From: Reclinomonas americana ATCC 50394
Taxonomy: Eukaryota
Reading direction: 5' to 3'
DNA: 50,559 nt
Assembly: GCA_048213135.1 (NCBI GenBank)
Contig: PS015082.1
Coordinates: 109,012 to 159,570 of the forward strand
Position 1 is the stretch's first letter. Each line of letters starts with the position of its first letter. Positions 1,110-49,000 of this stretch are shown in pieces. The notes beneath the pieces are model-generated. The model was given only the letters and a program-made list of their open reading frames with translations. It was not told the origin of the DNA and did no database searches. Both the position numbers and the translations under genes were made by a program.

Positions 1110-2196
1110 ATGCACGACAGACATCACACAGCGGGTGTTGTGGTGTTTGGTGCGCCACCACGTCGCGGACTCTCCTCTCTGCACCTCCTCGCCCTCTGCA
1201 CCCTCGCACTGTGGTGCATGCTCAACTCCCACTCCTCGTCACCACCACACATTCTCCTCGCGCGCGGCGATGTGGAGCCCGTCGCGCAGCCGAACTTTTA
1301 CGTAAAGACCTACCCGACAGCCTCACCAGCCTCGGCACTGCCGCCACCCATTGCGTTCATTGGGCGGCACTTTACCGCGCGCTTTCGCACCTCGCGAGTG
1401 CCCGACGACTGGGCGCGACTCTACTACGACTACGACGCAGGCAAGGTGCTGCTGGTGTTCTACAACAGAGACATGTGGTTCTACGATGCCAACGCTGTTG
1501 CGTCACGAGTGGAGAATGGAGAATGGCGACACAGGAGACTGACTGAGTGACGCTCTTTTGTGTAGGGTTACGAGTATGATCTTGTCAAGACCGAGGGCGG
1601 CACACTGTGCTTCTCGCGTGCCATTACGCACCAGTTGTGGTACCCGTCGATCCCCAAGGGCGCCATCTACCGCGACACGGTGCAGCGCGGCACGTATTTG
1701 AGTCGTCGCATGCAGCGCTTTCAGGATGTGGCCACGGGCGTGTTTCGGAACGTGGACGGGTGGACGCTCGGTGAGGCCGACCCTCCTCCGAGCGTGCGTC
1801 GCTGGTGCCTTCTCACTCTCTCAATTCTTCCGCGCAGGCGCGACGGCGATCCAGACCGAGGTGGCGGCAAAGCAGGTGCAGGAGGTGTTTTACTATCTGC
1901 ATCCGCGCTACTACGAGGTGGGAGTGACTGGCGGGCAGACGTACAAGCTCAAGTGGCTGGACCACACGGTCATTCCGTCGTCGACGTTTGATGTGTTGCC
2001 GACAAAAGGCAGCCAGGATGTGCTGAAGGCCGGCAACGTGCCGCAGTGCCTCGATTTCAGCTACCGGAACACGGTGGCGCAGCTGGCGCAGCGGTGGGAC
2101 TACATGATTGCCGAGGACATGTGGCACATGATGGACTTGCTGTTTGGCGAGTCCCCCGGTCCGCTCTTCCCGCTGGCACAGCCCATTCGCTGGTAA
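1110..2196 (+). CDS. Secreted protein, possibly ependymin-related (EPDR/LolA-fold-like); 3 exons
   Basis: Hydrophobic N-terminus (LHLLALCTLALWCML). Introns 1497-1565 and 1771-1838 give a continuous frame: FTARF...RLYYDYDAGKVLLVFY...WFYDANA|GYEYDL...C...STFDV...C. Family call is inferred from the YDY motif and spacing only. Confidence 0.55.
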
Positions 2197-2418
2197 AAAA
2201 ACAAACAACAGCAAACAGATGATGAAATAGGTGCCGCCACGGGAGGAGGGGTCTTGTATTTTGCACGCTGCTGCAACAGAGAGAGAGAACGGAACGCAAT
2301 AACGAGACTCCAACACCACGCGGTGGTGACGCGCACTCCACACACACAGCCAGGGGAAAAACAACACACACACGCACACAAAAGGACGAAACGCCTCTTG
2401 CTGCCGTGCCTCTCGCGC

Positions 2419-3687
2419 TTAACGGTAGCGGGGGAGCGAGAGGGTGTTGAGCCTGCGCCACTGGGCACGTCGTGACGGACGGCGTCCGTTCGAGCCGTGG
2501 TGTCGCACACGCAGACCACGACCCTGGCGACCAGCCGAGGTCAGACCGCGCAACTCGCGGTGCTTGTGGACAGGGCGGCAAATCCACGACACAGCCGGAT
2601 CGCCCATCACTGCCTTGTGGTTCGGGTCGACCAGGACCACCTCGTAGTACAGGTAGGTCGAGTCCGCAGCCACCCAGTACGAGTTCAGCACGCGCAGGTT
2701 TCCGCTACGCACACGAAATGAAAAAGGAGTGAATGAGTGAGTGCTGCATGTCGGCGATTGGACACGCTGTGGTTGATGCTGCTCACCAGCGCTTGCCGAC
2801 ACGCTCCTCAGCCACCGAGCGCTTGTTCCTGTAGAACTTGAGCTCGTTGACACCGTGGCCGGAGGGCTTGCCACGGGTGTTGCCACCGGGCACCAGTCTG
2901 CGGCGGCCACCACGGCGCACGCGCGAGCGGTACTACACACGCACACGAGATCCGAAGTCAATCTCACAGCACATGCGATTGAAGGAGGAAGGAAGGGGGC
3001 GCATGACGCACGACAACGAAGCCCTGCTTGGCCTTGTAGCCGAGGCGGCGAGCCTTGTCGGGGCGGCTCGGCTGCACAAACATGACAATCATCATCAGTC
3101 TCTTGCGCAAGTCATGGTGGTATGCAATGGACTTCCTCCCGACGAATACTCAACGTGAGTGAGGCGCACAATGCCAGGCTGCTGGCGGTACTCCCACGCA
3201 CGCACGCGCAGCAGGAAGCGCATCACGTCGCTCTGCTTCTTGCGCCACATCTCCTGAACGTACTTGTACGCGCCTGTGATGTGTCGGAATGAGCAAGCCA
3301 GCCGAAAACCTCCCAACAACAACTTAATAGCGACATGCACACACAGAGACGGAGAGACGGAGAGCGGGGAGAGGGGAAGGGAGAGGGGAAAGGGGGAGAG
3401 TGCGGGCATGTGCATGCATCATGACCGCCATGACACACAAGAGAAGCACCGCCACCATCACTGCGCCCCTCTCTGCCACGCCTTAGTACACACACGCGCA
3501 TGGTATGCACTGTGCAAGGAAGACTGCACCACGCACAGAAACACGAGGCGCTCACACGCGGGTGTCGTGCATGTCACACCATGCACAGCAGCAGCAACAC
3601 ACACACGCTGACACACACACGCATGCACGCATTCGACCGCCGCCACCACCTCGCTGTCTCCCTCCACACACAGCCAAACTAACCCAT
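2419..3687 (-). CDS. RPL15: 60S ribosomal protein L15 (eL15); 5 exons, first coding exon is only ATGG (3684-3687)
   Basis: [32 protein letters not shown]...[17 protein letters not shown]...[11 protein letters not shown]...[15 protein letters not shown]...NTLSLPRYR*. Confidence 0.97.
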
Positions 3688-3763
3688 GTTTTTTCCTCTC
3701 TGTGCGACACGCGCGAATAGTGAAAGACAATGCGGCTCGCGGCCGGTCATCTGTCCCTTTCCA
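3688..3763. promoter_or_regulatory. Probable bidirectional promoter region between RPL15 and METTL3
   Basis: Only 76 bp separate the divergent start codons at 3687 (-) and 3764 (+). Confidence 0.5.
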
Positions 3764-6501
3764 ATGGAGAACACAGCGCGCGAGATCGATGAGCTGCGCA
3801 AGCGGCAGGAGGCGCTCCGCCTGCGCATGCGCCTGCGTCCAACACGCAGCAGTGGCATGGAAGGTCTCCTTCCTCTGTTCGTACTTGGACATCCACTTTT
3901 TCGCTCACTGTTTTCGCTTTGCAGTCGATGCTACCACCCCAGCAACAACGCCCATGTCACCTTCGTTGCCACCAGCACAAGGCGTACCTCCTCCTCCTCC
4001 TTCTCTCGCTCCACCGCCTCCTCCTCCTCCACCCCCTCCTCCACCAGCTGCTGCAACACCATTGCTGTCATCACCACCTCCACCGCCACCACCGCCTCCA
4101 GCTGCTGCACCACTGGCATCACCGCAGAAGATGAGCGTGCTTGCTGCACCCATGGAAGTGGAGACCCCCGCTCCTGCAACGCCTGCAGCTGTGGCGGTGA
4201 CCATGCCCGACAATCCGGCGCTGGCCCCACTGTGTCACTATCTGTTGCAGTCCATGTTGTCGTTGCCGGTGCATTCGTTGGCGGTGGCTGAGGCGCTCCA
4301 TGTGCCAGTGGCACAAGTGGAGGAAGCGCTGCGTGCGTTGGAGGCCGCAGAGGGAATGGTGCGCTTGGAGACGTTTGACACGGGAGCGACGGAACGATTG
4401 TTGGTGTGGCATGTGGAACGGGGACGCATGAGGGCGTATGTGGACACGCTGCCAGTGGCGCGACCGGTGGCACCGACAACACCGTCGGCATCGTCGTCAA
4501 CCACCACACAAGTGACGGTCGCGGCGGGAGGCGGGGCCATTGAGGACATTCTGTTGCAGCCGTCGTACCTTGAGCAGGAGCGTCTGTCGTCGGCGGAGAT
4601 CATCAGTCAGCTGTTGTCGATGCCCACGTTCCGCGAATCGGTGGTGGCGCAGCAGTTTCAGAACAAAGGACAGCGCTTCCGTGCGTACTGTGTGCACAAG
4701 ACACGAGATGCGTGCTGTGAGGCTCGTGGGTCGTCGGTGCCCTGCGACGGTGTACACTTCCGCCAGTTGGTGTTTCCGCACACGGATCTCTCGCTCGGCA
4801 ATTGCTCCTACCTCGACATGTGTCTGGTCATGGGATCGTTTCGTGTGGACACACTTCTTCATCTCTTTGCCACAACACCCATCCCCGCTCACCATGTGCA
4901 CACAGATGCAAGTACGTGCACTGGGTGCCCGACAATGCCGACGCCGAGGGCGATCAGCAGCATGCCACTGCGGCTGATGCATCGGGTGCACGACGACCGA
5001 CGTTCCTCATGAACAGGCTGACCGCCAAGCGACGCCTCAGTGGTCTCAGCTGGCAACGCATCGAGGATCGCCTCCGAATGGATGCGCACAAGCGCCGGCG
5101 AATCATGCTGGATGCCGAAGAAGCAGGCAACGGAAGCTCGTCAGGAGTCGTGACGCTCCATCGTCCTTCTTTGTCGTCTGCCGCCACTCGACGATGGCGC
5201 CTGCCGCAGCTCGGTGAGCGTAGTGGCAATGGGATTGTGTGTCGATTCGTGCTCACTGTCCTCCACGAGCAGATGCATTGCCGCCTGATGTCGCTGAAGT
5301 GTTTTCACGACTGCAATCTCATGTTGCGTCGTCGTCGTCACAATCGTGGCATGCGCTCGATTATAGCGTCGCTCATGTGATTTCCGTCCGCAGCAAAAAC
5401 CACCGCAATGGATCCGGTGCGACGTGCGCACCTTCAAGTGGAGCATCATCGGCAAGTTCTCTGTCATCATGGCCGACCCGCCGTGGCGCATCCGCATGAG
5501 CGTTGCGTGCCTTGCTCCGACGTGCTGTCGCTCTCCTTTCAGTGTCATCTCATTCTGTGTCACGGTGCAGTTGCCGTACGGCACACTGGACGACAATGAA
5601 ATGCTGTCGCTGCCGGTCGGCAGTCTCCAAGACGACGGACTCATCTTTCTGTGGGTCACTGGTCGAGCGGCGGAGCTCGGTCGCAACTGCTTGCGGGAGT
5701 GGGGGTTTGTTCATTCGTCGCATTCCCTGCACCTGTGACTTGGTGTGTTGTCTGTGCTCATCATCATGCATGTCGCCAGCTACCAACGCGTGGAGGAAAT
5801 CATTTGGATCAAAACAAACCAGCTGCATCGTGTGATTTCCACCGGTCGCACTGGTCACTGGCTGAACCACACGAAAGAGCACTGTTTGGTCGGCATCAAG
5901 GGCAAACCGAAACTCAACACGTTGCTGGACACTGATGTTATTGTCTCGATGGTGAGCTCTCCTCTGCGTTGTGGATGCCATGCCGTTCGCTGGCTAACAC
6001 ATGGGGGCCTGCCTAGCCGCGTGAGACGAGTCGCAAGCCGGACGAGATCTATGGGATGATTGAGCGACTGTCACCTGGCACGAGAAAACTCGGTGAGGAG
6101 GGTGCAAGTAGATGCGGAGCCGACATGCAGTGGCACGATTCTCACTCTTGCGCGCAGAGATTTTCGGTCGGTCGCACAACCTCTGGCCGAATTGGTTGAC
6201 GCTGGGAAATCAGCTGCCTGGTGGTTTCTACGTGTGTGAACCCGAGGTGGCTCGTGGTGTGGCCGAGACGTACCCGGATCTGCAATCGGTCCCGTTGGCA
6301 GGCGCGCCCCTTCCGCCCGTTCCAGCTCCGTGGCCTGAACCAATGCCAGTTCGTGGACGAGGACGCGGTCGCGGTCGCGGCGCATCGTTGCGTGTGGAAG
6401 TAGCAATACCGCACAGCACTTCTGTTGTCTTACTGTTGGCGTGCGTACGTGCGTGTGTTCACAGACGGCCGTACAGAGCCAAGCAGCGAGTGTTCCCGTG
6501 A
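3764..6501 (+). CDS. METTL3: mRNA m6A methyltransferase catalytic subunit (MT-A70 family, METTL3/IME4/MTA); ~10 exons
   Basis: Leader helix [22 protein letters not shown]; two CCCH fingers (CVHKTRDAC...CDGVH and [17 protein letters not shown]); [94 protein letters not shown]. Confidence 0.96.
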
Positions 6502-6554: not shown

Positions 6555-9086
6555 TTACTTGCCTTGTGTTTGTAACAAGGCCAAGAACTCTTGTGGTGTG
6601 GGAATGTGGTACCGTGGCACCGCCTCATCGTCTTCATCGTCATCATCATCGTCATCATCTTCGTCGTCCACCGCGGACGCAGCACGCGCCGTCACCGTTC
6701 CAAGTTGGACGCGGTAATGTGCCGCCTCTTCGACGACAGGTTGCCTCTTGGCGGTCCCACCGAGCGACTTCTCGATGCGGTCGAGTCGCGCCGTGTGTCC
6801 GCGCAGTGTGGATTCAATGGCGTCGAAGCGCACCGTCATGAAACGCAGCAAGTCGTCAAAGGTGGTCACCGAGCCCGTGGCCGACGATGATGTCGCCGCC
6901 CCAGCAAGTGTGACCGGGATGACGGGCGGGAGGAGATCGCTTCTGGCAGGCGATGCCGGCGTCCTGCAACACGCACACGGTCAACACAAAACAGAACGCA
7001 GTGTCGACAAAGAGGGAAGCGCACGCAACGGTGAGGCACGTCGCGGGGCGGAATCGGCGGCAGTCGTCGGCAGCTCGGGAAAGTCACCGATGCGGCACAG
7101 TCGCAACTGGAAGCGAGTAGTCGTCTGTAGCGACATGGGAGCGGGTGGTGCGGCGGCGTCGCCGGCAAACACAAAGAGATCGGGAATAGTGGTGAACAGC
7201 GGAGCGGCAGATGGTGACGACGGGGTGGGTGGGCGTCGGGGCTGTCGCACTGGTCGCGCCCAGTGCAGGCCCTTCACCCGCTCAGTACTCTTCAGCACAT
7301 CGATCACAAAGTGTGACTGCAGATCGCCGGCATGCGAGATGCGCATTAGCTGGACGTTGTGATGGCTGCACGAGGCCACGGCCAGAATGTGCACGTCCTG
7401 TTGCACGAGCAGCATTTCAGGGTACCGCATGCTGGTCGGCACGCACGACAGTTGCGGGATCGGTCCTTCGCCCAGTCCCACACGCCACACGGCGACGAAA
7501 CCAACACTCTGCGATTTCTGCGGTGCCGCGAGGAAACATGGTCAGCTGCCGAGAAAGCAATTACCATGCATGCTGCCGGTGCGTGCAAACCTCAATGGCG
7601 GCCGGCTCGGCCGACACATCGTGCATGCTCATGGTGGTGATGTTCATCAGGGCCTCCAGCACACCTCCAGCGGGGGCGACGGCACCAGCCAGCGTCGGTT
7701 GAATGAGCGGCAACTGGAAGGGCAGCGCAGTCAGAACAAGCGAGGCACCAGCAGCAGCAGGGGGTTTCCCGCACGCAACATCGACAGAGGAACGCGGTGG
7801 CACAAACGCCGGTCGGGCATGGAACTGACCAACCGCCGCCTGTCGCTGCCGTTGTTGCTCACGAAGTTGCAGGCGATGCATTTCGGAGAGGCGAATGGTC
7901 TCGTGCCCGCACGCCACCACACCCCACTGCCAGTCGCGCACATTGGTGATCTCTACATCCACCAACTGCGACAACTCCTCATCATCGTCGCCGACTGTGT
8001 ACGAATCGGAGCCCGAGGCCGTGCCATCGCGCGCAGAGCGACTGTCAAAAATGAGCGTGTGCTCCAGCCGACACATCGGTCGTTCAAAGCTGCCAATGTC
8101 AAACACTTGCACGTGACGGCCGGCAGCACTGTGCATGACCAGCAATAGGTTAGCATGCATGCAACGACCAAAGCGCATGCATGGTAGCGGGAGTGGACGC
8201 AACACAAAGACTTGCCGCCCAGACGACGACCAACCGCAAAACGAAAAGTCGCCCTGTACAGAAAAGCACAGGTTTCGATCGGCGACGAGCAGCAGTGACG
8301 CAGACAACCCGTGCACAACGCACCGACAGCGACCAGAACGGAGCCGGAAACGCGTCGTCCGTGTCCACAATGCGGTACAGCTGCACGCCGTGCTGCGTCC
8401 ACAACTGCCAGCACACGGCGATGAGAGAAGAAGCGTCGACTCACCTCCGACTTGCTACAACAACAACGCACCAGCAGCATGTTGGAGTGGTGCGCCGGGC
8501 AGCAGGCAAAGTCACGCACTCGCACGTCAATGTCCTTGGTGATGGTGCGCCACACACGTGCGTGGCTCAGATCGCCTCTGTGTTTTGCAGCAGATGAGCG
8601 AGATCCGAGAGTGACGGAGACAAGTCGCGGCACAAAACGTTGCATCGCCACTGCATGCTTGATACAACAGTCGCCGTGGTGATCGGAAGAGAATGGCCAC
8701 GTGTGTGCCATTGGTCGACACACCGTCCACACTGTTGCACAAGGTCAGAGAGACACAAGGAATGCATTCTCCTCACTCCACACACACACACGCACCCATG
8801 GTACTCCTCCGTGTTGCGCACGGGAAAGTAGTCAATCACTTGTGTGGCGAGACTCACATCCACGAGACTGGAGCCATCGGTGAACACACAGTAGTCGCCA
8901 ATGCCAATGCCTGCACTTGTCGGCGCACCACTGCCACTCGGCGTGTCTGCATGCACGAGTGCATGCGTTAGTTGCACTCTCATCGTCACCTCTGCTCACA
9001 CGCACTCACTCACAGGAACACGAGGTGGTGAGCCGGTGGCGAGGCAGCTCAGCGTTGCCGAGGGTCACCGACTCCACAATGCTCAT
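6555..9086 (-). CDS. WDCP: WD-repeat and coiled-coil protein, WDCP (C2orf44)-like; multi-exon
   Basis: Starts MSIVESVTLGNAELPRHRL and contains VFTDGSSL. The block PEMLLVQQDVHILAVASCSHHNVQL...LKSTERVKGLHW...DLFVFAG resembles recalled human WDCP (PDLIAF...VVAVASNTCN...LENTERPKGICF...LLLILVG). C-terminal coiled coil LLRFMTVRFDAIESTLRGHTARLDRIEKSL. Confidence 0.65.
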
Positions 9087-9742: not shown

Positions 9743-12700
9743 ATGGCGAGTTTGATCTTGAATGATGTGCCTGTGGAGTTTCCCTTTCAGCCGTACCCGT
9801 GTCAGAGAGCGTATATGGAAAAGGTGTGTGGCAGAGAGAGAGAGATTGTGTGTCACAAATCACAAGAACGCCCTCACTTGTCTCTCTCTCTCACACTCTT
9901 GCTCACATACTCTCTCACACACACTCTTTCATTCGCACTCTCTCTCCCTTCCTCTCTCTCCCTCAGGTGATTCAAGCATTTGCACAAGAACGCACCGTTG
10001 GATTGTTCACCCATCTCTCTCACTCTTGCTCTCTGACACACACACTCTCTCTCGCAGTCAATCCTAACTCTCCACAGCAGTGGGAGTGTTCACCCATCTC
10101 TCTCTCTCTCGCACATTGTCTCTATCCCACACACTCTCTCTCGCTCATTCTCTCCTTCTCCCTCTCCCTCTCTCATTCCTTTCCCTTTCCCTCTCCGTCA
10201 AAATCCAAGCCCTTGAGCACCGCAAGAACACATTGTTGGATTGCTCATCTGTCTCTCTCTCTCTCCTTCTCTCTCTCTCTCTCTCTCCTTCTCTCATTCC
10301 TCTCTCTCTCCTTCTCTCATTCCTCTCTCTCCCTCCCCTCAGGTGATTCAAGCCCTTGAGCACCGCAAGAACGCACTGTTGGAGAGTCCCACTGGCACAG
10401 GCAAGACTCTGTGCCTGCTGTGCTCGACACTGGCTTGGCAGCAGCACGAGAAGGGCCGGCAACAGTGCGCTGTCCGTCTCAACCCGGACAGTGGTGCGCG
10501 CGCGTGCGATCACTCTCACCCTGACTCACTCGCATGGACTCACACGCGGCACAGAGTTTGACGCCGAGAGCGGTCCGCAGTCAGTGCGCGTGCCCAAGAT
10601 CATCTATGCGTCACGCACGCACAGTCAGCTGGCACAAGTGCAGCGTGAACTCAAGGCGACGAGCTATACGTTGCGTCTTTCTCGCGGCCAGTCGCAGTGT
10701 ACTTCTCCTCTTCCCTCATCTCTCCTGATCATCCCTCATCTCTTCTCTTGTGGCACGATTCACACTGTGCCGTTCATGTCGGTCTCCTCTTCTCCTTGCT
10801 TTGACATCGTCTCTCCTTTCCTCTGTCCTCTCTCCTCTCCTTTGCCTTTCTCAATTCTCTCTCAAGCTCGTTCTCCCACTCACTCTCTCTCTCTCTCTCT
10901 CCTACGGCGATCGCAGTGTGCTTCTCATCTTTTCTCTTGTGACACGATTCACACTGTGCTGTTCATGTCGGTCTCCTGAACTCCTGCCCTCTCCTCTTCT
11001 CCTCTTCTTTCCGCGTTTCTCTCCGTTGCTTCTCTCGATTCTCTCTCCTCCTCATCTCCTCTTCCTGTTCTTCTTCTTCTTCTTCTTCTTCTTCTTCTTC
11101 TTCTTCTTCTTCTTCTTCTTCTTCTTTCCTCTCCTTTGCTCCCTCTCACCTCTCTTCTCCTTTGCTCCCAGTCACCTCTCCTTTCCTATCGTCTCCTCGT
11201 CCTCCTTACCTCTCATCTTCTTCCGCTCTCTCATTTTTCTTTCTCTCCACCTCTTCTCACCCCTTCCCATTCCTTCCCCTCCCCTCTCCTGTGCGCGCAG
11301 CCCGCGTGTGGTCACACTGGCCTCTCGCGAGCAACTGTGCTGCCACAAGGAGGTCAGCGAGCTGCGCGGCAACGCTCAGAATGTAATGTGCCGTGCGCAC
11401 GTCGACAACAACCGCTGCTCGTACTACATCAATTACCGCGGTTCGTGCCTTCCCCCTCTTCCTCCTTGTCCCTTTTGCTGACAGTGCGATTGTGGCAAAG
11501 ACTACAAGCAATCCAACGGCGGCTGCTTCAAGAAGGGCGAGTTGGAGGAGATTGAGGACCTGTTGCAGACGGCCTCGCGCGAATCCGCCTGTCCATTCTA
11601 TCTCACCCGGTGTGCGCCACCACGTCTCCTTCTTCTCCTTCCTCGTGGGTCGAGCGACTGACGCGGTGGGAGGGAATCTACAGCGATGCGCACACGGAAG
11701 CCGATCTCATCCTCATGCCGTACAACTACCTGATCGACGGCACCATTCGTCGCCTCCTCAACATTGAGCTGAAGAATGCCATTATTGTGTGCGACGAGGC
11801 GCACAATTTGGAGGGGTGGGCCACGCAGAGTGCCTCGTTCGATTACAGTCAGGTCGACATTGCGGCGGGCGAAGCCGAGGTCGGTTGTCTGTGTGTCGCG
11901 AACCAGTGGGTCATTTGGTGTGATGATGCTCACCGTCTGTGCAGCTCGATCGGTGTATCCGCATTGTGCAGGCCAGCATCGATGGCAAGGGATTCAGCGA
12001 CGTCACCTACTCGGAGAACGACGCCAAAGTGTTGTGTCAGGCCAAGAGTTGCGTGGCGCAGGCGCAGTCGTGCACCACCCACAATGTGTGTTCACCTGCA
12101 TTGCGCAGAGATTCTTGGCCTACTGAGCAAGAGTCTGGCCAAGTTTCCGGTCGAGGCCGGCGAGGGCAAGGGCGTGACATTTGAGGGTGAGTCACTTAAA
12201 GGGGAAGAGTCGGCTCATTAGCGTCCACCTCATCAAGGAGCGAACAGGGCGCGAGATTTTTGACTTTATGGGCCACATTGGTATCCTGCCGGAGACTGTG
12301 CCAGTCATCAATGAGGCCATTGAGAAGGCCATTTCGATTCTGGTGGCCAACAGTTGCGCGTGTGTGCATGCATGCACATTCACCGTCTCTTCCATCACAT
12401 CTAATCCACGTGTTGCAGCCGGTGGCGATCAGTTTGCCAGTGCATCGGCCTCGAACCGGCGTGGTGGCAGTGCGTTGCACAAGTTTCGCGATGTGCTTGG
12501 CACGATCTTCTACGGTGGTGAGGCGGCATTGCGGTCGCTGTTCGACTTTAGTCTCTGTTATTTGTTGATGTCGAGTGCCGCAGACTCGCAGGATTTGGAA
12601 CGGGCGGACGCGTATCGTGTGCACGTTTGGCAAGACACACAAGCCGGTCGTGGAGCGGGCGGTCGTTTTGGTGCGGCCAACGGCGGAACCGGAGGTACAC

Positions 12701-15582
12701 GCTTCCTCCCGCCTTGTTTCGTTGTCATTTTACTCATGTGCGCGTATCCAGCACGCGTGCTGAGTTACTGGTGCTTCAACGCCGGCATGGCCATGCGTGA
12801 GATCGCCGCCGAGCAGGTCCACTCGTTCATTCTCACCAGTGGAACACTGTCGCCAATGGAGTCGTTTGCGTTCGAGTTGTCACTGTTGCGTCGCACAGCG
12901 TGAGAGTAGAAGATGTGCACGGTTGATTGTCTGACTGAACACACTCTTCTTTTGCATGTGCAGCGAGTTTCCGGTGCGCTTGGAGAACCCGCATGTGGTC
13001 GATTTGTCGCATGTCTGTGTGATGACGTTGGAGAAGGGACCGGGCGGTCGCACACTCAACTCGTCGTACCAGAATCGCGACCGACCCGAGTACAAGGACG
13101 AACTCGGGGCCACTATTCGTTGCGTGGGTGAAAATACGTGGATGCTGCGATGGCCACTTCCCTTTGCTCAGTCGGTGTGTGCAGGCAATGTTGCGCGGGT
13201 TGTGCCCGACGGTCTGCTCGTGTTCTTCCCGTCGTATGTGGTGATGCAAAAGTGCATCGAGTGGTGGAAACTCGTGTCACACGAGTCGCCGACCTCACTG
13301 TGGGATCAGCTCGGTCGCTACAAGCGAGTTGCGTCCTCGTGTGCTCCACGCAGGCGGTGCGGTGACGGTCGTGCCTGACACAGAGTTTCATGGTCGCCCA
13401 GTGTCTGGTCGAGCCACGCGACAGCTCACAGCTCAGTTCGGTGGTGGAGGAGTATCAGGGTTGTTGCAACAGCGGCCAGGGTGCAATTTTCTTTGCCGTC
13501 TGTCGAGTGCGTCTACTTGTCGTGAGTGCAGCTGCGACGAGTCGGTGATATTGACGTGATCGTGTGCAGGGCAAGGTTAGCGAGGGTGTCGACTTTGCCG
13601 ATGCCCACGGGCGTGCCGTCATTGTCACCGGTCTGCCGTTTCCGTCGCTCACGGACCCTCGAGTTGTGTATCAATGTTGGTCCTTTGTTGATTTCCCACT
13701 CTGTGCTCATTGCTTCCTCCTCGCAGATCAAGCTGAAGAAGGAGTATTTGGATCAGTTGAGCAGTCGTGGCCGCGGGCACTCCTTGACCGGCGAAGAGTG
13801 GTACACGCAGCAGGCGACGCGCGCGGTGAATCAGGCCATTGGTCGTGTCATTCGCCATCGCAACGACTACGGTGCCATTCTGTTGTGCGACGAACGGTAA
13901 GCGGCAGTCAGTGTGTGGCTGTGTCATGCATGCGCTCATTCTGCGTGTGTGTGAAGCTTTACTCAACCGCGACAACACAACTCGCTGTCGGCATGGTTGC
14001 GGCCGCTGGTCAAGCGCGAGACAGAATTCGGGCGTGCGAATTACGAGTTGACACAATTCTTTAAGCGCATGAAGGAGCTGGCGCCCGAGGGCGCTGCCAA
14101 GCCATCGCGCGCCGGTACGTCTACATTTTGTGGATGATAAGGGAAGAGCGTGCACCAATTCATGTAAGTGTGTGTGCGCGCAGACGACGGCGACGACGGC
14201 GGCGGTTCTTCGTCGTCGGCGGTTCCGCAGCTGCGCGCTGGTGTGCGAGCTTCTGGCCTCCGTCGTTCAACATCGCTGGCGGCGAAGAAACCCGTCGAGG
14301 ACAGTGTGCTCTCCGTGTACGATGCACCCACTGCGTCCGACACGCTGGCGCCACCGCCGCCAGCCACCACTGCCTCTTTGTCGGCTTCACAAGCGGAAGA
14401 CGAGCAGCGGCGACAGCAGGCGCGCGCACACGCCAAGGCCCATCGACAGTTGGTGGCGGCTGGCAATCCACCACCGTCACTAGTGGACGAGGTGAGTGCT
14501 GCGTGCGATTCCCCCCTTGTCCCTTGTTGCTTTCTAAAGCGCAAGCACCGCAACAGACATCAGCTGCTGCTCCACGACTCCCACCTCCTCCTCCTCCTCC
14601 TCCCCTGTCTGTGCTCTCTTCAACAACGACAACAACTGGAAGCATTGGAGCGGATGTCGGTGCACCAAAGGGGCGTGTGGCTCTCTTGGACGAGTCATTG
14701 GATGCGGAGCCGGACGCCGTGGACCTGGCAATGGCCGCCGCCGACGACCCTTTCGCCGATGAATTGCGTGACATGGGCGTCGTGCTGCCGCCGGCGCGTG
14801 TGGCACCATCAGCACCAGCTCCAGCTCCCCCAGTCTTGTCACGGTCCACCTCCTCTGGATCAGCCATGAGCTTCCCCGAATCGCCCGTGTTGTTTGGGCC
14901 GCGGTCACACATTCCCGCACCTCCTCCACCACCACCACCACCACCACCACCGCCACCACCACCACCTGTGCTGCAGATGCCTGTGCCGTCGGCATCGACG
15001 GCTGCAGCGGCTGCGCCACCACCACCACCCGTCAAGGGACCCGGTAGTGTGGCGGAGGGCTTCTTGGAACAAGTGCGGCGTGCGCTGACTGCGGCCGAGT
15101 ATCAGGGCTTCCGGCGGACGCTGAAGAACGTGCGTGAGACGTGCGTACAAAAGGACGCACAAGGGGCGCTGGCACCACAGAAGCGGGAGGCGCGTGCGCA
15201 GGCCTTTGAGGCGCTCTTCTCCGACATTATCAACCTGCTCTCCACGCCGGCATCGCGGCGGCCGCTGCTGCAGGGCTTCGAGTCGTTTGTTCCAGGCGGA
15301 CAGCTGCCACGATGGAGGCAAATGGTGGCGGAACGCGAGCGCCGGGATGCCGTGTCCATGCCGCCGTCACCAGCTGCTGCTGCCATTGATGTCGACGCCG
15401 AGGATGTCGTCATGGCGGCGCCGATGCCAGTGAATCCGGCGCTGGGTGCCGCGGGCGCAGGACGCGGTCTCGCCTCGCTCTCCTTTGCGTCGCCTGCCGT
15501 CAGCCCAGAAAAGTCCAAGAGGAAGCGAGCCGGCATCGACCTCGTCACTGGCATGCCCGTGTACAAGCGGCCGAAGCAATAA
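9743..15582 (+). CDS. RTEL1: Regulator of telomere elongation helicase 1 (Fe-S DEAH helicase, Rad3/XPD family); ~20 exons
   Basis: [122 protein letters not shown]-terminal harmonin-N-like domain ([17 protein letters not shown]...[10 protein letters not shown]) favours RTEL1 over FANCJ. Confidence 0.92.
9961..10244 (+). repeat. Decayed copies of the RTEL1 intron-1 acceptor and exon-2 start
   Basis: cctcagGTGATTCAAGCATTTGCACAAGAACGCACCGTTGGA (9961) and ATCCAAGCCCTTGAGCACCGCAAGAACACATTGTTGGA (~10203) versus the real exon at 10343. Confidence 0.85.
10691..10977 (+). repeat. Direct duplication of ~70-100 bp inside an RTEL1 intron
   Basis: cacgattcacactgtgc(c/t)gttcatgtcggtctcct occurs at ~10755 and ~10943. 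Confidence 0.8.
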
Positions 15583-16562: not shown

Positions 16563-16593
<31 letters not shown>

Positions 16594-30669: not shown

Positions 30670-31325
30670 ATGTCACTCTCACAAGTGTTTGTGCTCTCCT
30701 CGCGCGGAGACACAATCGTCTTTCGCGACTGTTGCGTGTGTGAGACACAAGAGAAGAGAGTGAGGGCACTTTTATCACACAGTTTGATGGTGTTCTCTCT
30801 CTCTCTCTNNNNNNNNNNNNNNNNNNNNNNNNNNNNNNNNNNNNNNNNNNNNNNNNNNNNNNNNNNNNNNNNNNNNNNNNNNNNNNNNNNNNNNNNNNNN
30901 NNNNNNNNNNNNNNNNNNNNNNNNNNNNNNNNNNNNNNNNNNNNNNNNNNNNNNNNNNNNNNNNNNNNNNNNNNNNNNNNNNNNNNNNNNNNNNNNNNNN
31001 NNNNNNNNNNNNNNNNNNNNNNNNNNNNNNNNNNNNNNNNNNNNNNNNNNNNNNNNNNNNNNNNNNNNNNNNNNNNNNNNNNNNNNNNNNNNNNNNNNNN
31101 NNNNNNNNNNNNNNNNNNNNNNNNNNNNNNNNNNNNNNNNNNNNNNNNNNNNNNNNNNNNCCGTCCGTTCCGGTCCGTACCGTACGACACACACTACACA
31201 CACACTACTACTACTCTCTCTCTCTCTTCTTCGTCGTACGTACGTACGTTAGTTAGTTGTCGTCGTACGTACGTACGTACGTACGTACGTACGTACTACT
31301 ACTCTCTCTCTCTCTACTACTACTA

Positions 31326-34169: not shown

Positions 34170-35379
34170 TTATTGAAAGTTCACTCTTCTCGACGACGAC
34201 GACGATGATGGGAGACCTCTGCAACGGAGACACGTCAGCGGCAGCATAACACAGCGTGCACCTATCCACAACACCAGACGCAACATGCTCTGCGAGGGCA
34301 TCGGCACTGGATTCATCAACGCATTCGCTCGCGCTCGCTCCCCACGCTCGCGCTCCAACCTCTCTCTCCGCAACCGGTCTATCTCCGACTCCTTCACCAC
34401 CGCACGCACCGCCAGCTGTTCCACGCACAGTCAGTCAGTCCGTACGCACGCACGCACACAGAGCAATCACGGACGACGCACTTGCCGCTCTGCCTCGGCC
34501 CGTTTCGCCTCTCGCTTCTGCCGCTTGCGCAACTCGGTCTTGACAAGCACCAGTAACCTGTACGCATCGGTGGCATCCACACGCGACGGCCTGCTCACTC
34601 TGCATGCATGCAAACCGATATGATCATCCCCGCTCAAGGTTGACGAATGGCGGGGGGCGGTGTCCACACTCAACTGCCCCTCCGCAGACGACGGTCTCTC
34701 GAAATACCACGGCTTGCTGTCGCTCTTCTCAATGGACCCAAAGCCGAGGGCGTACTTTTTCTGCTCCTCCGGGTCCATCTCCCCGTGCTTCTTCTTCTGC
34801 CTCTTCATCGGTGGCGCCAGTCCCTGCAACATCAACATGAGATCTCCTTCTTTGTGTTGTCGCTTCGTGAGTGCCCGCAACGCACTCCCGTCTCCGCCTC
34901 CTCGCGCTCAGCATCCGCGAACAAGTTGACTGGCGTTGCCTCTGCGGTTGTCGTCGTCGTTGTTGTCTCACTCCCCTCTTCATCGCCACCTCGTTGTCGG
35001 CGCTTGAGAACCTCCAGTCGCGCCTCTTGTTCTCTCAGCGCCGCCTGCTCTCGCGCCTCCTCCTGTTTGCGCTTGTGCTCTGCCTCATCGCGCTCCACGC
35101 GATCAATGTTCTGTGCGAGGGGGCGGAGGGTGTGAGTGAGGGAGAGAGAGATAAGGAAGGAGTGTGATTACGAAACATCGCGGTTCCACACATTCCACGA
35201 CTGTGTGCACACAAGTAGGTGAGTGGAAGCGAGTAGGAGTCAAGGGAGAGACGAGTATTGAGGCGTACCTTGTGTGCTGTGTGGGAGTGTAAGAAAGTGA
35301 GAGAGAGAGTGAGTCGGATGCAAAGAAAGAGGGAGAGTGAGGAGGAGACGCAACGGAGAATGATCAGGCGCCCACTCAT
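34170..35379 (-). CDS. LENG1: LENG1-like protein (CIR_N domain, splicing-associated)
   Basis: Spliced MSGRLIILPHKSWNVWNRDNIDRVERDEAE (CIR_N), then VNLFAD, KPWY and IDRLRRERLERERGERARANALM. Confidence 0.8.
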
Positions 35380-39560: not shown

Positions 39561-39702
39561 GGTGTGGAAGAGAGAGAGAGTGCGTGAGAGAGTGTGCGCG
39601 TGTGACAAAACTCGCGTGCAAGGGACAGTGGCCGACAGTCTTCATATCACTTTCGCCTTCGTTGTGTTTGCAGTGTGTGTGTCGCCTTCTGCGCGCGTGT
39701 GT

Positions 39703-39742: not shown

Positions 39743-39866
39743 ATGGAGCTCGATCGCATTGCGACTCTGTCGCTGCCTGAAGGCGAATTGCGCGCCATTA
39801 GCTTCCACCCGCTGGATAGCACAGTGGCAATGGCAGTCGATCGTGAAATCCAAGGCATGTTTGCAT

Positions 39867-39897
<31 letters not shown>

Positions 39898-39973
39898 GAG
39901 GAGGGAGGGAGTGTGTGTATGAGAGGGTGAGCATGGCGTGCCACTCTCCTCTCTCTCCTCTCTCCTCTCCTCC

Positions 39974-40008
<35 letters not shown>

Positions 40009-40822: not shown

Positions 40823-40875
<53 letters not shown>

Positions 40876-41409
40876 TCTCTCTCTCTCACTCACTCTCTGT
40901 CTCTTGTTGTCGCGTTTCGTCTGTTTCTCTCTCTGTTTCTCACGTTGTTTGCGTGTCAGAGTATGATTTGAACACGGGCGCGCGGCTGTCGAGCTTCCGC
41001 ACCGATTTGAGGACGACGCACTTGCTGCATTCACAGACGAACAATGCATTGATTGCGGCAATGGAGGTAAGAATACTTTTCTTCACACACGTGCACGTGT
41101 GCGCACGCGCAAACTGAGGAGAAGGGAGAGAGAGAGAGAGAGAGAGAGTGCGTGCAGCTGTCATCCCTCGCGCACACTTGCAGAGAAAGGAGAGAGGAAG
41201 AGAAGTCGAAGATTTACCAACTCAGAGAGGAGAGGGAGAACGAGAGCTTCCACGCGCAATCACAGAGAAGGAAGAGAGAGGGAGCGCATTCAGCTGGTTG
41301 CTCTCCCTTTGTGTCCTGTCACACACGGAGCAGCGGCGAGAGAGAGAGAGAGGAACGAGAAAGAGTTCCGTTCGCTGGTAAGCCTTTGCTCCAAAACAGT
41401 CGCAGAGAA

Positions 41410-41453
<44 letters not shown>

Positions 41454-42893: not shown

Positions 42894-42953
<60 letters not shown>

Positions 42954-42976
42954 CTCTCTCTTCTCTCTTCTTCTCT

Positions 42977-43022
<46 letters not shown>

Positions 43023-46000
43023 TCGCTTTTCCTTCCCCTGCGTCTCCCTCCTTCCTTCCCTCCTTGTCTCTTTCCCTCCTTCCCTCTCCTTTTCTCCCTC
43101 TCTCTCCCTCTCTCTCCCTCCTTCGTTTTTTTCTTCCCCTGCGTCTCCCACCCTCCTTCCCTCACCCTTCCTGTCCTTTTCTCTCTCACAGAACACTTGA
43201 CCGGCAACGCCCGCGTGGGCATCAGTGCGCTCACCTTTGACGCCGCTGGCACAATTCTCGTGGCTGGCACCACCGAGGGGCAGCTGGCGTTCTGGGACAC
43301 GGGTTCTGGTGGCACTCCGCGTTTCAAGGCCAGGTGGGGCGTGTGTGCCTGTTGATGTTGCACCACACACACACTCTCGCTTCTCTTGCTCACTCACTCT
43401 CTCTCTCTCTCTCTCTCCCTCCCTCCCATGGCAGCGTGCGCATGAGCTCGCGCCGCGTGCTCAGTATCCAGTACCACCCGTACCTCGGGTTCTTCTTTGT
43501 GCTGACGGCCGACGGCGATTTGACCGCATGGTTCCTGCGCAAGGACAAGAAGGACGCCGAGTCCCTGTGCCAGTACGGCGCATTCAAGGTGCGCTGTGCA
43601 CACAACTCGCCATGTGTCTCACACTTGTTGTGCTCATTTTTTCTGTCGCTCGCCACAGATTTACAACGTCTTTATTGCCGATCGCACGTGCCGCGTGCCG
43701 TCGATTGAACGCTTCAGCTTCAACTTCCATCCGCGCGCCAACTTTGCCATGTTCCTCGGCGTCGTCAATCCAATGTCTTCCAAGCTGCCAGTGTTCTCCA
43801 TGCAGCAGCGCAGCAACCCGCGTGCCATTCTGCCGTGTGTCTTGTCGAACGAGTTGGACCCGGCGCTCGTCCTTGCCGACCCCATCTACATTTCGCCAGT
43901 GTCGGGAGGTGTGTTGGGAGGTCTGTCCGTTCCACTGCGTGGCAGCACGCGTCACCAATCATTATGGTTCTGCAGATGACGCGAGCGGTGCCAGCTCGTC
44001 TGCTGGCTCACAGGCAGACTCGCGCCCACGTGGTGTCATGCCAGCCGACAAGAGCCGCGTGTTCCCCTCCATTGTCTTCTACACAGATTTGTACTACGGC
44101 TCGTACGTGCTGATGAAGCAGTCGTTGCTGTCGGATCAAGTCGATCGCGTTACTGGCTTGACGAAATCGGTCTGTCAGACTGATAGAGTCTATTGTCGTG
44201 GATTGCTGATTTCTCTCGTGATGTAGAGTGAGGATCCGTCCGACCAGGATCTGTACAGACCAGTGCGTCTGTCGCGCAGTGTCAAGGGCAACCGCTTCCT
44301 CATTGTGCTGCAAGGTCACGGCTTCAATGTTCGCGGTCGAGGTAACCTCACGATCTCGTCGTGCCCACGACGATCTTCTTTGTTGCTTGTACTCACCCTG
44401 CGTTGACACACGCAGAGTTGCTCAACAAGTACGCACTCTGCAGCAGCGACGCCGACAACAGCTGCACTCCGCTAATGCCGGGACGGGACGGTGTCTTTGT
44501 GGGTCCTGATGACATGGATTACCTCATTTTGTCGCACGACGGCAAATCGGTGAGTGCTTGTGTCTGACTGCGCTGTGACAGCACATGGCTGATGGGGCAA
44601 TGGAATGCATTAGATATCGTTGCACACTCTGGCGTCGGAGATGCCGCCAGTTACGTGTCCAGTGGAAGACGACATGCAAATCGATCGCGCGTGGCCGTGC
44701 AAGTGGGGTTCGTCGTCGCTTGTCGCATCATCGGCGTTTGTATTCAGAGCTCCTCACACGCGTGTGATGTGCACGACAGGCGCCGATCCCAATGCTGCTC
44801 TCTACTACGACAAGCGCGGACACCAGCTGATTCTGTCGGCATCGTTTGCGTCCCCTGGCCTTCCTGGTGTCGCCCGCTACGCCCCCTCGTCACAACACAC
44901 GTTCCCGCTGTTGGATCTGGAGTCGCTGGTCGACGTGATGTGGACGACACATGCTGTGACTTCGTCGGGCCTTCCGCAGACGGTGGTTGGTGTGCTGACC
45001 ACTCGTCGCGCCATTATTCTGTCGGCCAAGCTCGGCTTGATCTCGTTCTTCGAGAACACGTCTGTCTTTGTTGCGTTCCAGCGTCGTCGTGTTCACGAAT
45101 TCTACTGTCCCTTCTTAATAACGACTACTTCGTGCAGACTCACCGCTCATGCCTGTGGATCGGACAATGCCTGCTCTTCAACACGGACGTGGAGGTGCGA
45201 GTGCTCTCCGCCGACGGCACGTGCACCACGGTGTGCACCATTGATACACCGAATTCGAGTTACATTATAGTTCTTCTCTCTCCCTCTCCCTCTCTTGCAT
45301 CTCACGCTCACGGGCCCTTTCCTGCAGTGCTGTGCACTGTGCTGCAAGATCGCATCATTTTCGCCAGCTTCATGAAGGAGAAGACGTTCTTGTGGCACCG
45401 TGGTGTTGCGTCATTGCTTCTCTCTTTCTCTCTCTGTTGGATTCCGTCTGCTCATACCACTGCAGATTGGTCTGCTGGAGCCGCTGATGCTCGGTATTCT
45501 TGGCATGCATGACCACGTGCGAAAGCAGCCGAACGAAGACGCCGACGCTGTGACTGCGCGCACATCTGCACTATTGCACTCGTTGACAAAGCGGTGTGTG
45601 CGCGAGTTTGTGAGTTCTGCTGCATGTCCGCGACGCTGCCTCACCTGTCGGACTCGGCGATTGCAGATTTGATGGAAACCGCATCGGTCCCACCCTGGTC
45701 GACCGCGTGCAAAGAAGTGGATTCTCGTCCTTGGCTTTGGAGTTGGTGCGCTTGTTCCCTGTCGGCGGAGTTGTTTGTGCATGTCTGCACTCACGAGTGT
45801 GACGTGGTAGGTGTTGAATGCACCGGAGCGTTTCCTCTGGCCATTCCGGTTCGGCATCGCGCTGAAAGCGCTGCGCTTTGACCGCGCGTACGAGGTGCTG
45901 GATCAACAGCGCAAGATCGAGAATGGAGTGGACTCCAGTTTCGCCGTCTCCGCGTGGTGTCAACAGAGCGCGCCTTGTCATTCACATTCATTCTATTACG

Positions 46001-49000
46001 CTTCTCACAGCATCCACATTGAGCGAGGGCTCGCCACTGTACTCTCACTATCTGCGGCTCGGATCGGTGTGCGCTGACTATGGTCAGTTCGCACTGGCAG
46101 CACAGTGCTTCGATTGGGTGAGTGTGCGCGTCGTCCGCGCGGCTGTCCGTACTCAGTTGTCTGATTTGTGGTACGCCGCAAGATTGGCGATGACTGGGCA
46201 CTGTTCGAGGTGTTCTCCTCGTGCAACAATGCCGGCGGTATGAACCTGCTCAAGCAATCAATGGCCGAAGACAGCCGCCACTCGTCGCTGGTGTACGCCA
46301 TTCACGCGTACCTGGATGAGCCAGTTGTGTTGCAGCTTTTTTTTTGTTGTCGTTGTTGGTGATACATTTCGCTTGTGACTGACACTATCCGTTCACAGCA
46401 ACAAGAGGTCGACACGTTCTCCATGGAGATGAGTGGCGGCACTGGAAAACGGCAGCGAGTACTTGGACAGTCAATCGATGGTTCGTGGGGGCGTCGTGGC
46501 GTGTGTGTTCATTGCCCTAATCTGCGTTGCCAACACTTGCATGCACAGCGCTGCGCCTCATTGATTGGCCAAAGAAGACGCTCAGTGTCGAAGAGTGGGT
46601 GCTGTCGCAGCAGAATGTGGGCGACATGGTGGTGGCGTTTGTTGCTGATGGCAAGGTGGAAAAGGTGAGTATCTCCTTGCCCCGGCATTGAATGGGAACG
46701 GATTGGTGTTTGCTTACCGCTGTTGCTACAGATTGCGCCGCTCAGCTACCAGACACTGATCGAGTGGCTCGGCTCGCCGAAGACCATGATTCACCTGAAG
46801 CAGCTCGGGCAGCAGTTGCGTGGGGCGTTTTCACACAAGAAAAGTCTGCGCCTGCTTCCTTGGTGTATGCTCATTGGTTGTGGATCATCGCAGAACTGCT
46901 CACCGTCGCAAGAAGGCGGGCCCGGGCGGAGCTGGCGCTCCATCGGCCGAATCGACTGCAGCCTCCACCGACGGTACATATTCGTGTGTGTGTGTTCGCG
47001 CGTGCGTGTGGCCGCCGCGATCGTCGCTGTTCTGATCACATGCAACAACCACAGACACGGTTACCGCCGACGAAGCGGCGGATGCGCAAGAAAAGGCACG
47101 CGCAACATTCCAGAGCTACGGCCAAGATATGTATATTGGCTTGTGTTGTGTACTGCGCGCGCATTACCCCACACACGCACTTATCTGCGTTCTTCTTGTC
47201 GTGCACGCAGCGAAGACGACTGGTCTGACGACGAGGGTGATCGTCGCAAGAAGTTGCGCTCTCACGCACGACAAGTGTCGATGTTCATTTCATTCTCCAT
47301 ACTCATGACATTGCGCCGCACAGAATCATGGTCGTCATCAAGGCGCAGGCCGTCAAGAGCACCGGCACGGGAGAGTCGCTGTCGAAAATCACCAAGAACT
47401 TCAAGCTGCGCGGCAAGGGTGGCGCCGTTGTCAAGTTGCGCTTCATGGATCCGCTCCTACGCAGTTAAGTGGGCTCGTTACTCACCGCATTACGTGCACG
47501 CAGGGGTCACAGCAAGTCGGATTCGTGGAGCGATGACGACTTTGGCGGTGAGTCGTCGGCACCAAAGGCTGCCACGGCACCCAAGATATCACTCAGTGCC
47601 GCCGGGTTTGTGACTCGTTGTGCTTGCACCTCCGCAGCGATGCGCACTTCTCACATGTACGCTGTATGCGCAGATCGTCGGCCACTGGCGGATCCGACTC
47701 GGCTCCTGGCACGCCCAACTCGGACGATGGAAGGTGCCGTTGACTTGTGCTTCGTGTATGCGCGTGTTACTGTTTACCGATACATGCGTGTGCGTAGTGC
47801 GTCTGCGACTCCTGTGAAAACGCAACGCGCGCCGCGATCCATGGCTGCGTCCTTTGGCGATGACTTTGACGATGATTTCGGCGGCGAGAGTTCCGGGAGT
47901 GCCGGTGGCTCCTCGTGCGTACCTCGGCACTCGATGATGCCAGTTCACGCCTTGTCTCATTGTGTGTTGCGCAGAACGCCGGTGTCGCCGCCTGCTGGTG
48001 GCTCTCTGTCGGTGCCCAGTGCTGGCTCCGATGGCCCACTCACACCGCCTGCCGGTTCACCGGATGCGGCGTCTCCGGGGTCGTCATCAACTGCGGCCGC
48101 CGGGTCGAGCAGTGGCGGCGGTGGTGACGATGACGATGACTCAAGCAGCCGTCCCAAGTCTCGTCCTGTTAGGTTCGGTGCCGGGGGGGGGGCACAATTA
48201 TTTTGCGATGTCATTTGCCGCACGTTGCTCACCTCATTGCAGTCTCGGTCGTGGTGGTCTTGGCGGCAAATTGTCACTCGGCAAGAGCGGTGCCGCCGCC
48301 AAGAAGGAAGTGGACATTAGGTTCTGTGATCGACGTGCTTTTGTTGCTGCGTACTTTGTGTGCTTCTACTGATACTCGGCATGGTTTGTGTGTTTGCAGC
48401 AAGAACCAAGCGGCGTTTGACCAAGGCATGGAAAAGATCGCTGCCGGCGCTTTCCCCGCAGCTCTTCAGCTGTTCAACAGCGCACTTGTTGGTCTCGGTA
48501 CGCCGTGCAGTTTTTTTGCCGTGTTGTTTTTCTCGCTGTTGGCGTTCTGACTGGATGTGCCGCAGATCCCGATGCCGAGGAGAAATGCAAAACACTGGCA
48601 AAGCAGTGCATCGAGTACAAGAAGCTGCTCCTGCTGTTGTTGCAGGATCGACAGGAACTGGCAAAGAGGGCCACCGAGGGGGTACGTCACTCGCGAGAGT
48701 CTTCAGTGCTGTATTCGATACTGATCATTGTCTGTACACAGTTGGCGCCTGTGAGTCGAGGCGGCTTGTGCCTCGCTGCGGCCAGCCAGCTGGACGTGCA
48801 GCGAGTGTACACCATCCGATGCGCTCGCCTCGCAATCGACCGGCTCATGCAAGCCGAGGCTTGGCAGTATGCTGCAGAAATCCTCTCGGTGCGTTGATTG
48901 CTGTGCGTTGGATTCTGTCGTGCACTTGCGGCTCACAGTACTTTCGTGATGTTCTTGTTTCACACAGGAGTGGGTTCGTTGTAATGTATTAGTGTGCAAC

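Follow-up and report, generated by a model that had tools for sequence, protein, structure and literature searches.

The questions of which RNA sets the cut site and of how much slack the U1 and U6 registers leave have been studied mostly on rare human exceptions and on engineered sites. Human 5' splice sites (donors) that pair with U1 small nuclear RNA (snRNA) in a register shifted by +1 (Roca and Krainer 2009, via PMC4856993) are of a rare GUUAAGU kind and fit canonical U1. All validated non-canonical registers together account for 1.5% of human donors, and with 68 predicted bulge +2/+3 sites and 51 predicted bulge +3 sites the bulged registers are exceptions there as well (PMC4856993). Another line of work distinguishes exon-side AG//GUNNN (U5-type) and intron-side NN//GURAG (U6-type) donor classes, which are established in several species (PMC11732430); a two-class split of donors is also found in PMC9803359 (2022) and in Kenny et al. 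2025 (PMC11842720). Human variant U1 snRNAs with altered 5' ends have been described (PMC3561869), and the diplonemid S. specki has two U1 genes differing in the 5' end, both said to fit the same donor logo, the donors of diplonemids being (G)/GTATG (PMC12621601). Here we describe a 50,559-base window (the whole stretch of DNA analysed) from Reclinomonas americana ATCC 50394, in which about a third of the curated donors (13 of 35) belong to a class that starts with GTTGCGT or a close variant of it, never follows an exon ending in G and is predicted to pair poorly with canonical U1. These donors are called class 2 below, and all other curated donors class 1.

Class 2 resembles the human +1 shifted sites, as presented in PMC4856993, in that the intron starts with GUU, G+1 can take the U1 cytosine of the -1 G (the last exon base) and cleavage is at GU. 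It differs from them in its share of the donors, in an invariant GC in place of AA and in its bad fit to canonical U1; a shifted register clearly better than the canonical one, which defines the human sites, is found at a single class-2 donor, 3154. Class 2 also recalls the bulge registers of Tan et al. 2016 (PMC4856993), since drawing U+2/+3 of GU-U-GCGU as a bulge leaves GUGCGU. The mechanism favoured below has the same form as the variant-U1 systems, namely more than one U1 5' end per genome, and the U1 passages of those articles describe no case of two U1 forms serving two donor classes. Nothing on GTTGCGT or GUUGCGU as a splicing signal was returned by a full-text literature search, outside of which figure logos and supplementary tables lie, and the combination of the shifted-register and intron-side-class ideas in this form was not found described.

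The donors were fixed with a custom protein-to-genome spliced aligner, which allows any GT..AG intron, applies no other splice-site scoring and is therefore blind to the motif. The homologues used were 27 listed matches of 330-800 amino acids for a METTL3-like methyltransferase (about 3600-6300, + strand), 33 of 150 returned representatives (850-1600 amino acids) for an RTEL1-like helicase (about 9743-15561, +), reduced to 32 by dropping one with a score below 300, and the first 45 listed matches of 410-500 amino acids for the AP-4 mu subunit (31489-34000, +). A donor was considered homology-fixed when 50% or more of the homologues selected it or when it lay between abutting alignments to PDB entries. 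The curated set also includes RPL15/eL15 (2420-3290, -) and a TTLL-type tubulin ligase (about 28320-29640, +), all five genes being recognized by homology. It comprises 35 donors, of which 25 are homology-fixed, 7 were placed by eye and 3, all in the RTEL1-like gene, have a plurality only. Class 1 is represented by 22 of them (20 after G and two non-G GTGCGT donors) and class 2 by 13 GTTGCG-like donors.

Ten class-2 donors are homology-fixed in four conserved genes. Nine of them, all claimed in the initial annotation of the window, were recovered by the motif-blind alignment with homologues of three genes on the + strand. In the METTL3-like gene these belong to the introns 4838..4905 (ATC|GTTTCGT, 22/27 homologues) and 5502..5570 (AGC|GTTGCGT, 27/27). 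The RTEL1-like gene harbors five: 10670..11300 (TAC|GTTGCGT, 631 nucleotides (nt), donor chosen by 21/32), 12885..12963 (ACT|GTTGCGT, 30/32), 13119..13184 (TTC|GTTGCGT, 25/32), 13328..13401 (CGA|GTTGCGT, donor 16/32, donor-acceptor pair 13/32) and 13663..13726 (CGA|GTTGTGT, 20/32). Two are located in the AP-4 mu gene, 33353..33421 (TGA|GTTGCGT, 45/45) and 33569..33630 (CTC|GTTGCGT, 39/45). The tenth is the RPL15 intron 3072..3154 on the - strand (CAC|GTTGAGT), where the exon ends at eL15 residue 41 and the next one starts at residue 42. The translations of three RPL15 exons align to eL15 residues 2-41, 42-61 and 62-109 in the PDB, and this fixes the donors 3154 and 3011 to the base. Removal of the 10 class-2 introns and of 15 others restores the match to the homologues, as expected for U2-type GT-AG introns; GT..AG ends occur in all 35 curated introns, which is partly built in, as the aligner required them. 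The remaining three class-2 donors fit the reading frame of the TTLL-like gene (+) by eye, with partial PDB support. They open the introns 28801..28854 (CAA|GTTGCGT), for whose upstream exon no PDB match was found, 28870..28937 (CAT|GTTGCGT), whose downstream exon aligns to TTLL6 from residue 170/171, and 29016..29081 (AAA|GTTGCGC), where the PDB alignments leave a 3-residue slack and the junction is inexact. The first two of these introns, the upstream one being 54 nt long, flank a micro-exon of 15 nt (28855-28869, +; five codons plus a split codon).

The donor class depends on the last base of the exon. Of the homology-fixed donors (n = 25), the 13 after G include no class-2 site, whereas the 12 after another base comprise 10 of class 2 and two GTGCGT (Fisher p = 2e-5); for all 35 curated donors the counts are 20 class 1 and 0 class 2 after G versus 2 and 13 after non-G (p = 7e-8). 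Donors after G are diverse (GTGAGT, GTGTGT, GTATGT, GTCAGT, GTAAGC, GTTTGT, GTTCGT and similar among the homology-fixed ones). Class 2 has T at +3 in 13/13 and C at +5 in 11/13 cases, and GCG(T/C) is present in 13 of the 15 non-G donors; both non-G exceptions to class 2 are perfect GTGCGT. Thus, an exon ending in G is followed by a loose intron start, GTRWGY, and an exon ending in A, C or T almost always by GTTGCGT and rarely by GTGCGT, so that the shared core UGCGU compensates for the missing -1 G. This is similar to the two major donor classes, in the sources cited above, where -1 G is anti-correlated with intron-side strength (here 13/0 versus 2/10). Unlike NN//GURAG, the intron-side class is here GUUGCGU, one base longer and with U+3 and C+5, and the split is nearly absolute and not a tendency.

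These results agree with the initial annotation, which had listed 33 such donors and tied their class to the -1 base. All 33 positions carry the sequence given for them (24 GTTGCGT, 5 GTTGCGC, 2 GTTTCGT, 1 GTTGTGT and 1 GTTGAGT), and the preceding base is A, C or T in 33/33. A few non-G donors had been described as unshifted, and homology bears this out for two of them: CGA|GTGCGT in the RTEL1-like gene (13507..13569, +; 27/32 homologues) and GTC|GTGCGT in RPL15 (2933..3011, -; exon ending at eL15 residue 61 and the next starting at 62). The association of T at +3 with a non-G exon end is not exclusive, however. Class 2 never occurs after G in the curated set, but T at +3 does, namely in the METTL3-like intron 5705..5779 (+, GGG|GTTTGT, 27/27) and in the RTEL1-like intron 11441..11500 (+, GCG|GTTCGT, 23/32), so a T in the third position is tolerated in the normal register too.

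The heptamer itself is over-represented about three-fold. GTTGCGT occurs 32 times on both strands of the window versus 9.83 expected (standard deviation 2.89, maximum 17 in 100 dinucleotide shuffles); 24 of the 32 copies are claimed donors and the other 8 are approximately the chance number. Two of the unclaimed copies, at 32083 and 33897, lie within AP4M1 introns. The absence of G|GTTGCGT that had been reported is reproduced over all copies (0/32; the preceding base is T in 15, C in 8 and A in 9). It is less striking than it appears because G before GTTGC is rare in this DNA anyway (21/195, giving P(0/32) = 0.026); in comparison with GTTGCG[ACG], preceded by G in 8/36 cases, P(0/32) is 3e-4.

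It was claimed previously that conserved residues fix the cleavage before the GT and not one base later. Junction residues support this at METTL3 5502, where the canonical cut gives the leucine present in 27/27 homologues and the later cut valine, and in RPL15, where the canonical cut gives the conserved P42. A cut one base later would alter the junction residue at 4/9 homology-aligned junctions and in RPL15, and would require introns with TT..GN ends. The junction of RTEL1 13663 points the other way: homologues have V (28/33), the shifted cut gives V and the canonical cut gives I, which is a conservative difference. At AP-4 mu 33353 the residue of neither cut matches the homologues, and the RTEL1 13328 junction falls in a column variable among homologues. 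Taken together, the junctions favour cleavage before the GT, though less uniformly than was claimed.

Pairing energies were computed with RNAduplex for the canonical U1 5' end AUACUUACCUG, as printed in Tan et al. 2016 (PMC4856993), with shifted and bulged registers allowed. All 20 class-1 donors after G pair with it in the canonical register. The mean duplex energy in any register is -6.9 kcal/mol for class 1 (n = 22) and -1.2 kcal/mol for class 2 (n = 13). When the donors are compared with 170 random GT decoys, canonical U1 reaches an area under the receiver operating characteristic curve (AUC) of 0.90 for class 1 and of 0.31 for class 2, i.e. it ranks the latter below the decoys. With a hypothetical 5' end ACGCAAC, class 2 would reach a mean of -10.6 kcal/mol and an AUC of 0.96, but class 1 would be served poorly (AUC 0.52). 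A single hypothetical ACGCACC end is a compromise (AUC 0.73), with which the 1x1-loop (shifted) form of pairing has -6.2 and the bulged form -5.5 kcal/mol; the shifted and bulged forms of class-2 pairing cannot be told apart from the sequence. For all 35 donors together the AUC is 0.93 with canonical U1 plus ACG(U/C)AAC, 0.855 with the best single 7-mer and 0.68 with canonical U1 alone.

The alignments and intron features show that the GTTGCGT sites act as true GT-AG donors in the ordinary (U2-type) spliceosome. According to the reading we prefer, to which we assign a probability of about 45%, they are read by a non-canonical or second U1-like partner. The heptamer would base-pair with something other than the canonical U1 5' end, the likeliest partner being a U1-like snRNA with the 5' end ACGCAAC (a second U1 beside the canonical one) or ACGCACC (one altered U1). 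Intron G+1 would then take the cytosine that pairs with the -1 G in class 1, and the cut would still be set at GU by U6/U5, which would have to tolerate an additional U separating the GU from the paired region. Two partners are suggested rather than a register shift because class 1 prefers A or T at +4 and avoids G, as for a position opposite the uridine or pseudouridine at U1 position 5, and class 2 has C at the equivalent place. We thus favour, as a prediction and not as a finding, a change in the U1 5' end or, with greater likelihood, a second RNA of the U1-like kind. The more specific arrangement with two readers side by side, canonical U1 for donors after an exon G and a second U1-like snRNA (approximately ACGCAAC) for GUUGCGU, is possible but rather doubtful. 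The 50-kb window contains no snRNA gene at the Rfam gathering score, and at E <= 1 only hairpin-like matches on CT/GA tracts appear.

Several points weigh against a special U1-like partner. Few RNA sequences of eukaryotes are as highly conserved as the U1 5' end. The putative partner was read from the motif alone, and being picked as the best of 16,384 7-mers it partly restates that motif; GC-rich 7-mers score well in the pairing test in general. The energies follow nearest-neighbour rules for unmodified RNA, without pseudouridine, U1C or LUC7. H|GTGCGT (H being A, C or T) is six times rarer than H|GTTGCGT, though complementarity to ACGCACC predicts that it should be at least as good. The avoidance of -1 G in class 2 is explained by neither pairing model, and is itself only moderately significant (P = 0.026 to 3e-4). 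Finally, the sample consists of 35 donors from five genes in one 50-kb window, 7 of them placed by eye.

The poor fit of canonical U1 would also be expected if class-2 donors were weak U1 sites by design that are selected at a later stage or by other means, either through a sequence-specific protein recognising UGCGU (an RNA-binding protein or a helper of the U1C/LUC7 type) or through U6/U5 contacts. They would then be the known intron-side class taken to an extreme. The 3' ends are in line with this: CAG closes 13/13 class-2 but 13/22 class-1 introns (C at -3, p = 0.013), and the rigid class-2 donor seems to go with a stricter acceptor. By inspection, though, the U6 ACAGA box gets just two Watson-Crick pairs with GUUGCGU and these are one base off register, while an invariant core of five bases with two G-C pairs resembles RNA-RNA pairing. 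We consider selection by a protein or by U6/U5 unlikely, though it is the chief rival reading.

The initial annotation had proposed instead that U1 pairs with GUUGCGU shifted by +1, that G+1 replaces the -1 G and that this is a routine mode of recognition; with an ordinary U1, a bulged U+3 would be a variant of this reading. A variant snRNA in this lineage, which the annotation named as another possibility, corresponds to the reading favoured above. The starting observation of the annotation is correct: when GGTGCGT is laid over GTTGCGT, five of seven positions coincide (G, T, G, G and T), and the two classes agree in G at +5/+6 and T at +6/+7. Experiments reported in PMC4856993 have, moreover, proven shifted and bulged registers in human cells, and one site, the GTTGAGT at 3154, is better paired with canonical U1 in the +1 register (-4.6 kcal/mol, every pair offset by +1). 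The other 12 class-2 sites have +0.5 to -2.5 kcal/mol in any register, and GTTAAGT-type sites, which would fit a shifted canonical U1 best, are missing from the donors. The equivalent position differs as well: class-1 donors have A in 10, T in 7, C in 3 and G in 0 cases at +4, and class-2 donors have C in 11/13 at +5 (p = 1.6e-4), a difference not expected if both classes contacted the same U1 bases, and the nearly invariant C would oppose the uridine or pseudouridine where class 1 prefers A or T. Together with the mean energies and the AUC below 0.5 given above, this speaks against routine shifted pairing to an ordinary U1, which we regard as distinctly improbable.

A class of this kind might also arise as an artefact of picking frame-restoring GTs in GC-rich DNA with long chance open reading frames (ORFs). 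A strict frame-restoring ORF test is passed by 14% of all GT sites in the window (896/6304), ORF-length tests are weak in this GC-rich DNA, and 20 of the 33 claimed sites are not individually checkable, lying in unconserved sequence where group statistics provide the support. The claimed sites nevertheless pass the ORF test in 15/33 cases (p = 1.6e-5 versus the 14%). In the 20 sites the best acceptor 45-100 nt downstream, scored with a matrix trained on class-1 introns only, exceeds that of random GT sites (17/20 above the background median, 6/20 above the 90th percentile, Mann-Whitney p = 7.6e-5). With ten sites fixed by homology without the motif and the three-fold excess of the heptamer, an artefact is very improbable. 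A donor-blind gene finder was also tried as a source of donors and dropped; it used codon log-odds, then an acceptor matrix and length prior, then an intronic donor mixture, and exactly recovered 3/20 and later 15/35 known introns, the codon bias being too weak.

Three of these 20 sites lie in conserved genes on the + strand. The donor 5323..5329 falls in an unconserved linker of the METTL3-like gene (3/27 homologues) and its frame was followed by eye together with an intron at 5214-5272. In a weakly conserved part of the RTEL1-like gene 12048..12054 is chosen by 4/32 homologues and has an acceptor at the 92nd percentile of background, and the GTTGCGC at 12353..12359 is chosen by fewer than 3/32, with rival donors at 12343 (11) and 12362 (4). 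The other 17 are in genes without usable homology, and 20 ORFs taken from these regions gave zero Pfam families. Individual acceptor percentiles on the + strand are 97th for 1497..1503, 99th for 6387..6393, 33rd for 19944..19950 and 98th for 24996..25002 (GTTGCGC). The acceptor and ORF tests support as a group 20334..20340, 21303..21309, 21479..21485 and the two GTTGCGC sites 47253..47259 and 47435..47441 on the + strand, and 7023..7029 and 34278..34284 on the - strand. The acceptor test alone does so for 30731..30737, which is 72 nt before an N gap, 45070..45076 and 45405..45411 on the + strand and for 8197..8203, 35170..35176 (GTTTCGT) and 35348..35354 on the - strand. The lack of a Pfam match was recorded for the ORFs at 45070, 45405, 47253 and 47435 and at all five - strand sites.

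A separate minor (U12-like) spliceosome with a transformed 5' motif is hardly credible. A rigid 5' heptamer independent of the exon end is typical of U12-type introns, but the class-2 motif is unlike the U12 5' motif RTATCCTT, and inspection of the curated introns by eye revealed no TCCTTRAY-like box near their 3' ends. In other properties the two classes agree: median lengths are 65 nt for class 1 and 68 nt for class 2 (p = 0.43), 21/22 class-1 and 11/13 class-2 introns carry a YTNAY branch motif in the region 10-40 nt before the acceptor, and its distance to the acceptor is 14 versus 18 nt. Since length, branch motif and AG ends match, both classes are assigned to the same ordinary (U2-type) spliceosome. 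Equally implausible is that the heptamer was not selected as a signal but passed on as the terminus of a family of mobile introns (introners), as the identical 7-base start of many introns might suggest: intron bodies without heptamer and CAG show no excess of similarity within class 2 in an all-against-all blastn of 31 short introns (mean best bit score 3.6 for class 2, 3.7 for class 1 and 4.7 across classes), and insertion would not be expected to link the heptamer to the -1 base.

A genome with a routine one-base-offset donor strictly tied to the last base of the exon would offer a natural system for the register question. If two readers do operate, more than a third of introns would be recognised one base off register and U6/U5 would routinely fit an extra U at the catalytic centre. 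The resulting prediction is sharp: the U1 5' end, or that of a second U1, should carry ACGCA(A/C)C. In practice, roughly one exon end in three would be misplaced in this organism by gene finders trained with one donor matrix only.

The remaining curated donors follow G and belong to class 1. In the METTL3-like gene (+) they open 5952..6016 (ATG|GTGAGC) and 6093..6157 (TCG|GTGAGG), both chosen by 27/27 homologues. In the RTEL1-like gene (+) these are 11610..11683 (CCG|GTGTGC, 31/32), 13897..13956 (ACG|GTAAGC, 27/32) and three with lower support, namely 12187..12247 (AGG|GTGAGT, 12/32, plurality only), 12695..12751 (GAG|GTACAC, donor 10/32, acceptor 25/32) and intron 1, 9824..10342 (AAG|GTGTGT, 15/32, plurality only). 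The AP-4 mu gene (+) has seven: 31768..31840 (GTG|GTGAGT, 45/45), 31883..32547 (AAG|GTGTGG, 665 nt, 42/45), 32620..32828 (CGG|GTGTGT, donor 33/45, acceptor unsettled with 22/45 for 32828), 32955..33017 (CAG|GTGTGT, 45/45), 33151..33219 (GAG|GTCAGT, 38/45), 33755..33822 (AGG|GTATGT, 42/45) and 33879..33945 (GAG|GTGAGC, 42/45), the last of which contains the non-donor GTTGCGT at 33897. Placed by eye are the TTLL-like introns 28606..28678 (AAG|GTAAGA), 29351..29409 (TTG|GTGCGT) and 29508..29567 (AAG|GTGACA) on the + strand and the RPL15 intron 2705..2786 on the - strand (CTG|GTGAGC), whose upstream exon aligns to eL15 62-109.

Among CT-rich tracts, intron 1 of the RTEL1-like gene contains degenerate copies of the exon 2 start (38 nt). 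The copy at 10203-10240 is 92% identical to the exon 2 start (10346-10383), from which it lies 143 nt upstream, and a weaker copy is found near 9985; the acceptor and the exon start thus seem to have been duplicated locally in tandem. The long AP-4 mu introns (32111-32435 and 32640-32800, +) contain long CTT/CTC microsatellites as well as 4.2 copies of a tandem repeat of 79 nt with 66% matches. GA/CT low-complexity tracts at 39860-40010, 24130-24310 and 20330-20510 fold as long hairpins and give many sub-threshold matches to Rfam microRNA families, which are taken as spurious.

The window is approximately 57% G+C, includes five N gaps and is dense in genes with short introns. Its proteins are only 47-65% identical to their best relatives. 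For AP-4 mu a word search gave stramenopiles as the top named matches (56-65% identity), and in a quick single-gene tree the window protein stood unplaced on a branch of 1.33 with at most 47% identity. The closest PDB matches of RPL15 are eL15y/eL15z ribosome entries, presumably from plants. CT-rich tracts had suggested a diplonemid, but the (G)/GTATG donors of that group differ from those seen here. The 505-amino-acid C-terminal exon of the RTEL1-like gene had no match in the first homologue search. The stretch 40001-45000 has 38% G+C versus about 57% elsewhere and is flanked by the largest two of the N gaps, 40009-40719 and 41456-42348. A repeat, foreign DNA or a join made in scaffolding could account for it. 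Three consecutive WD40 ORFs of 372, 388 and 430 amino acids, recognized by homology at 35655-39641 on the - strand, have about seven WD40 repeats each and fewer introns than their neighbours, and may represent either a single WD40 protein of very large size or a family of genes in tandem.

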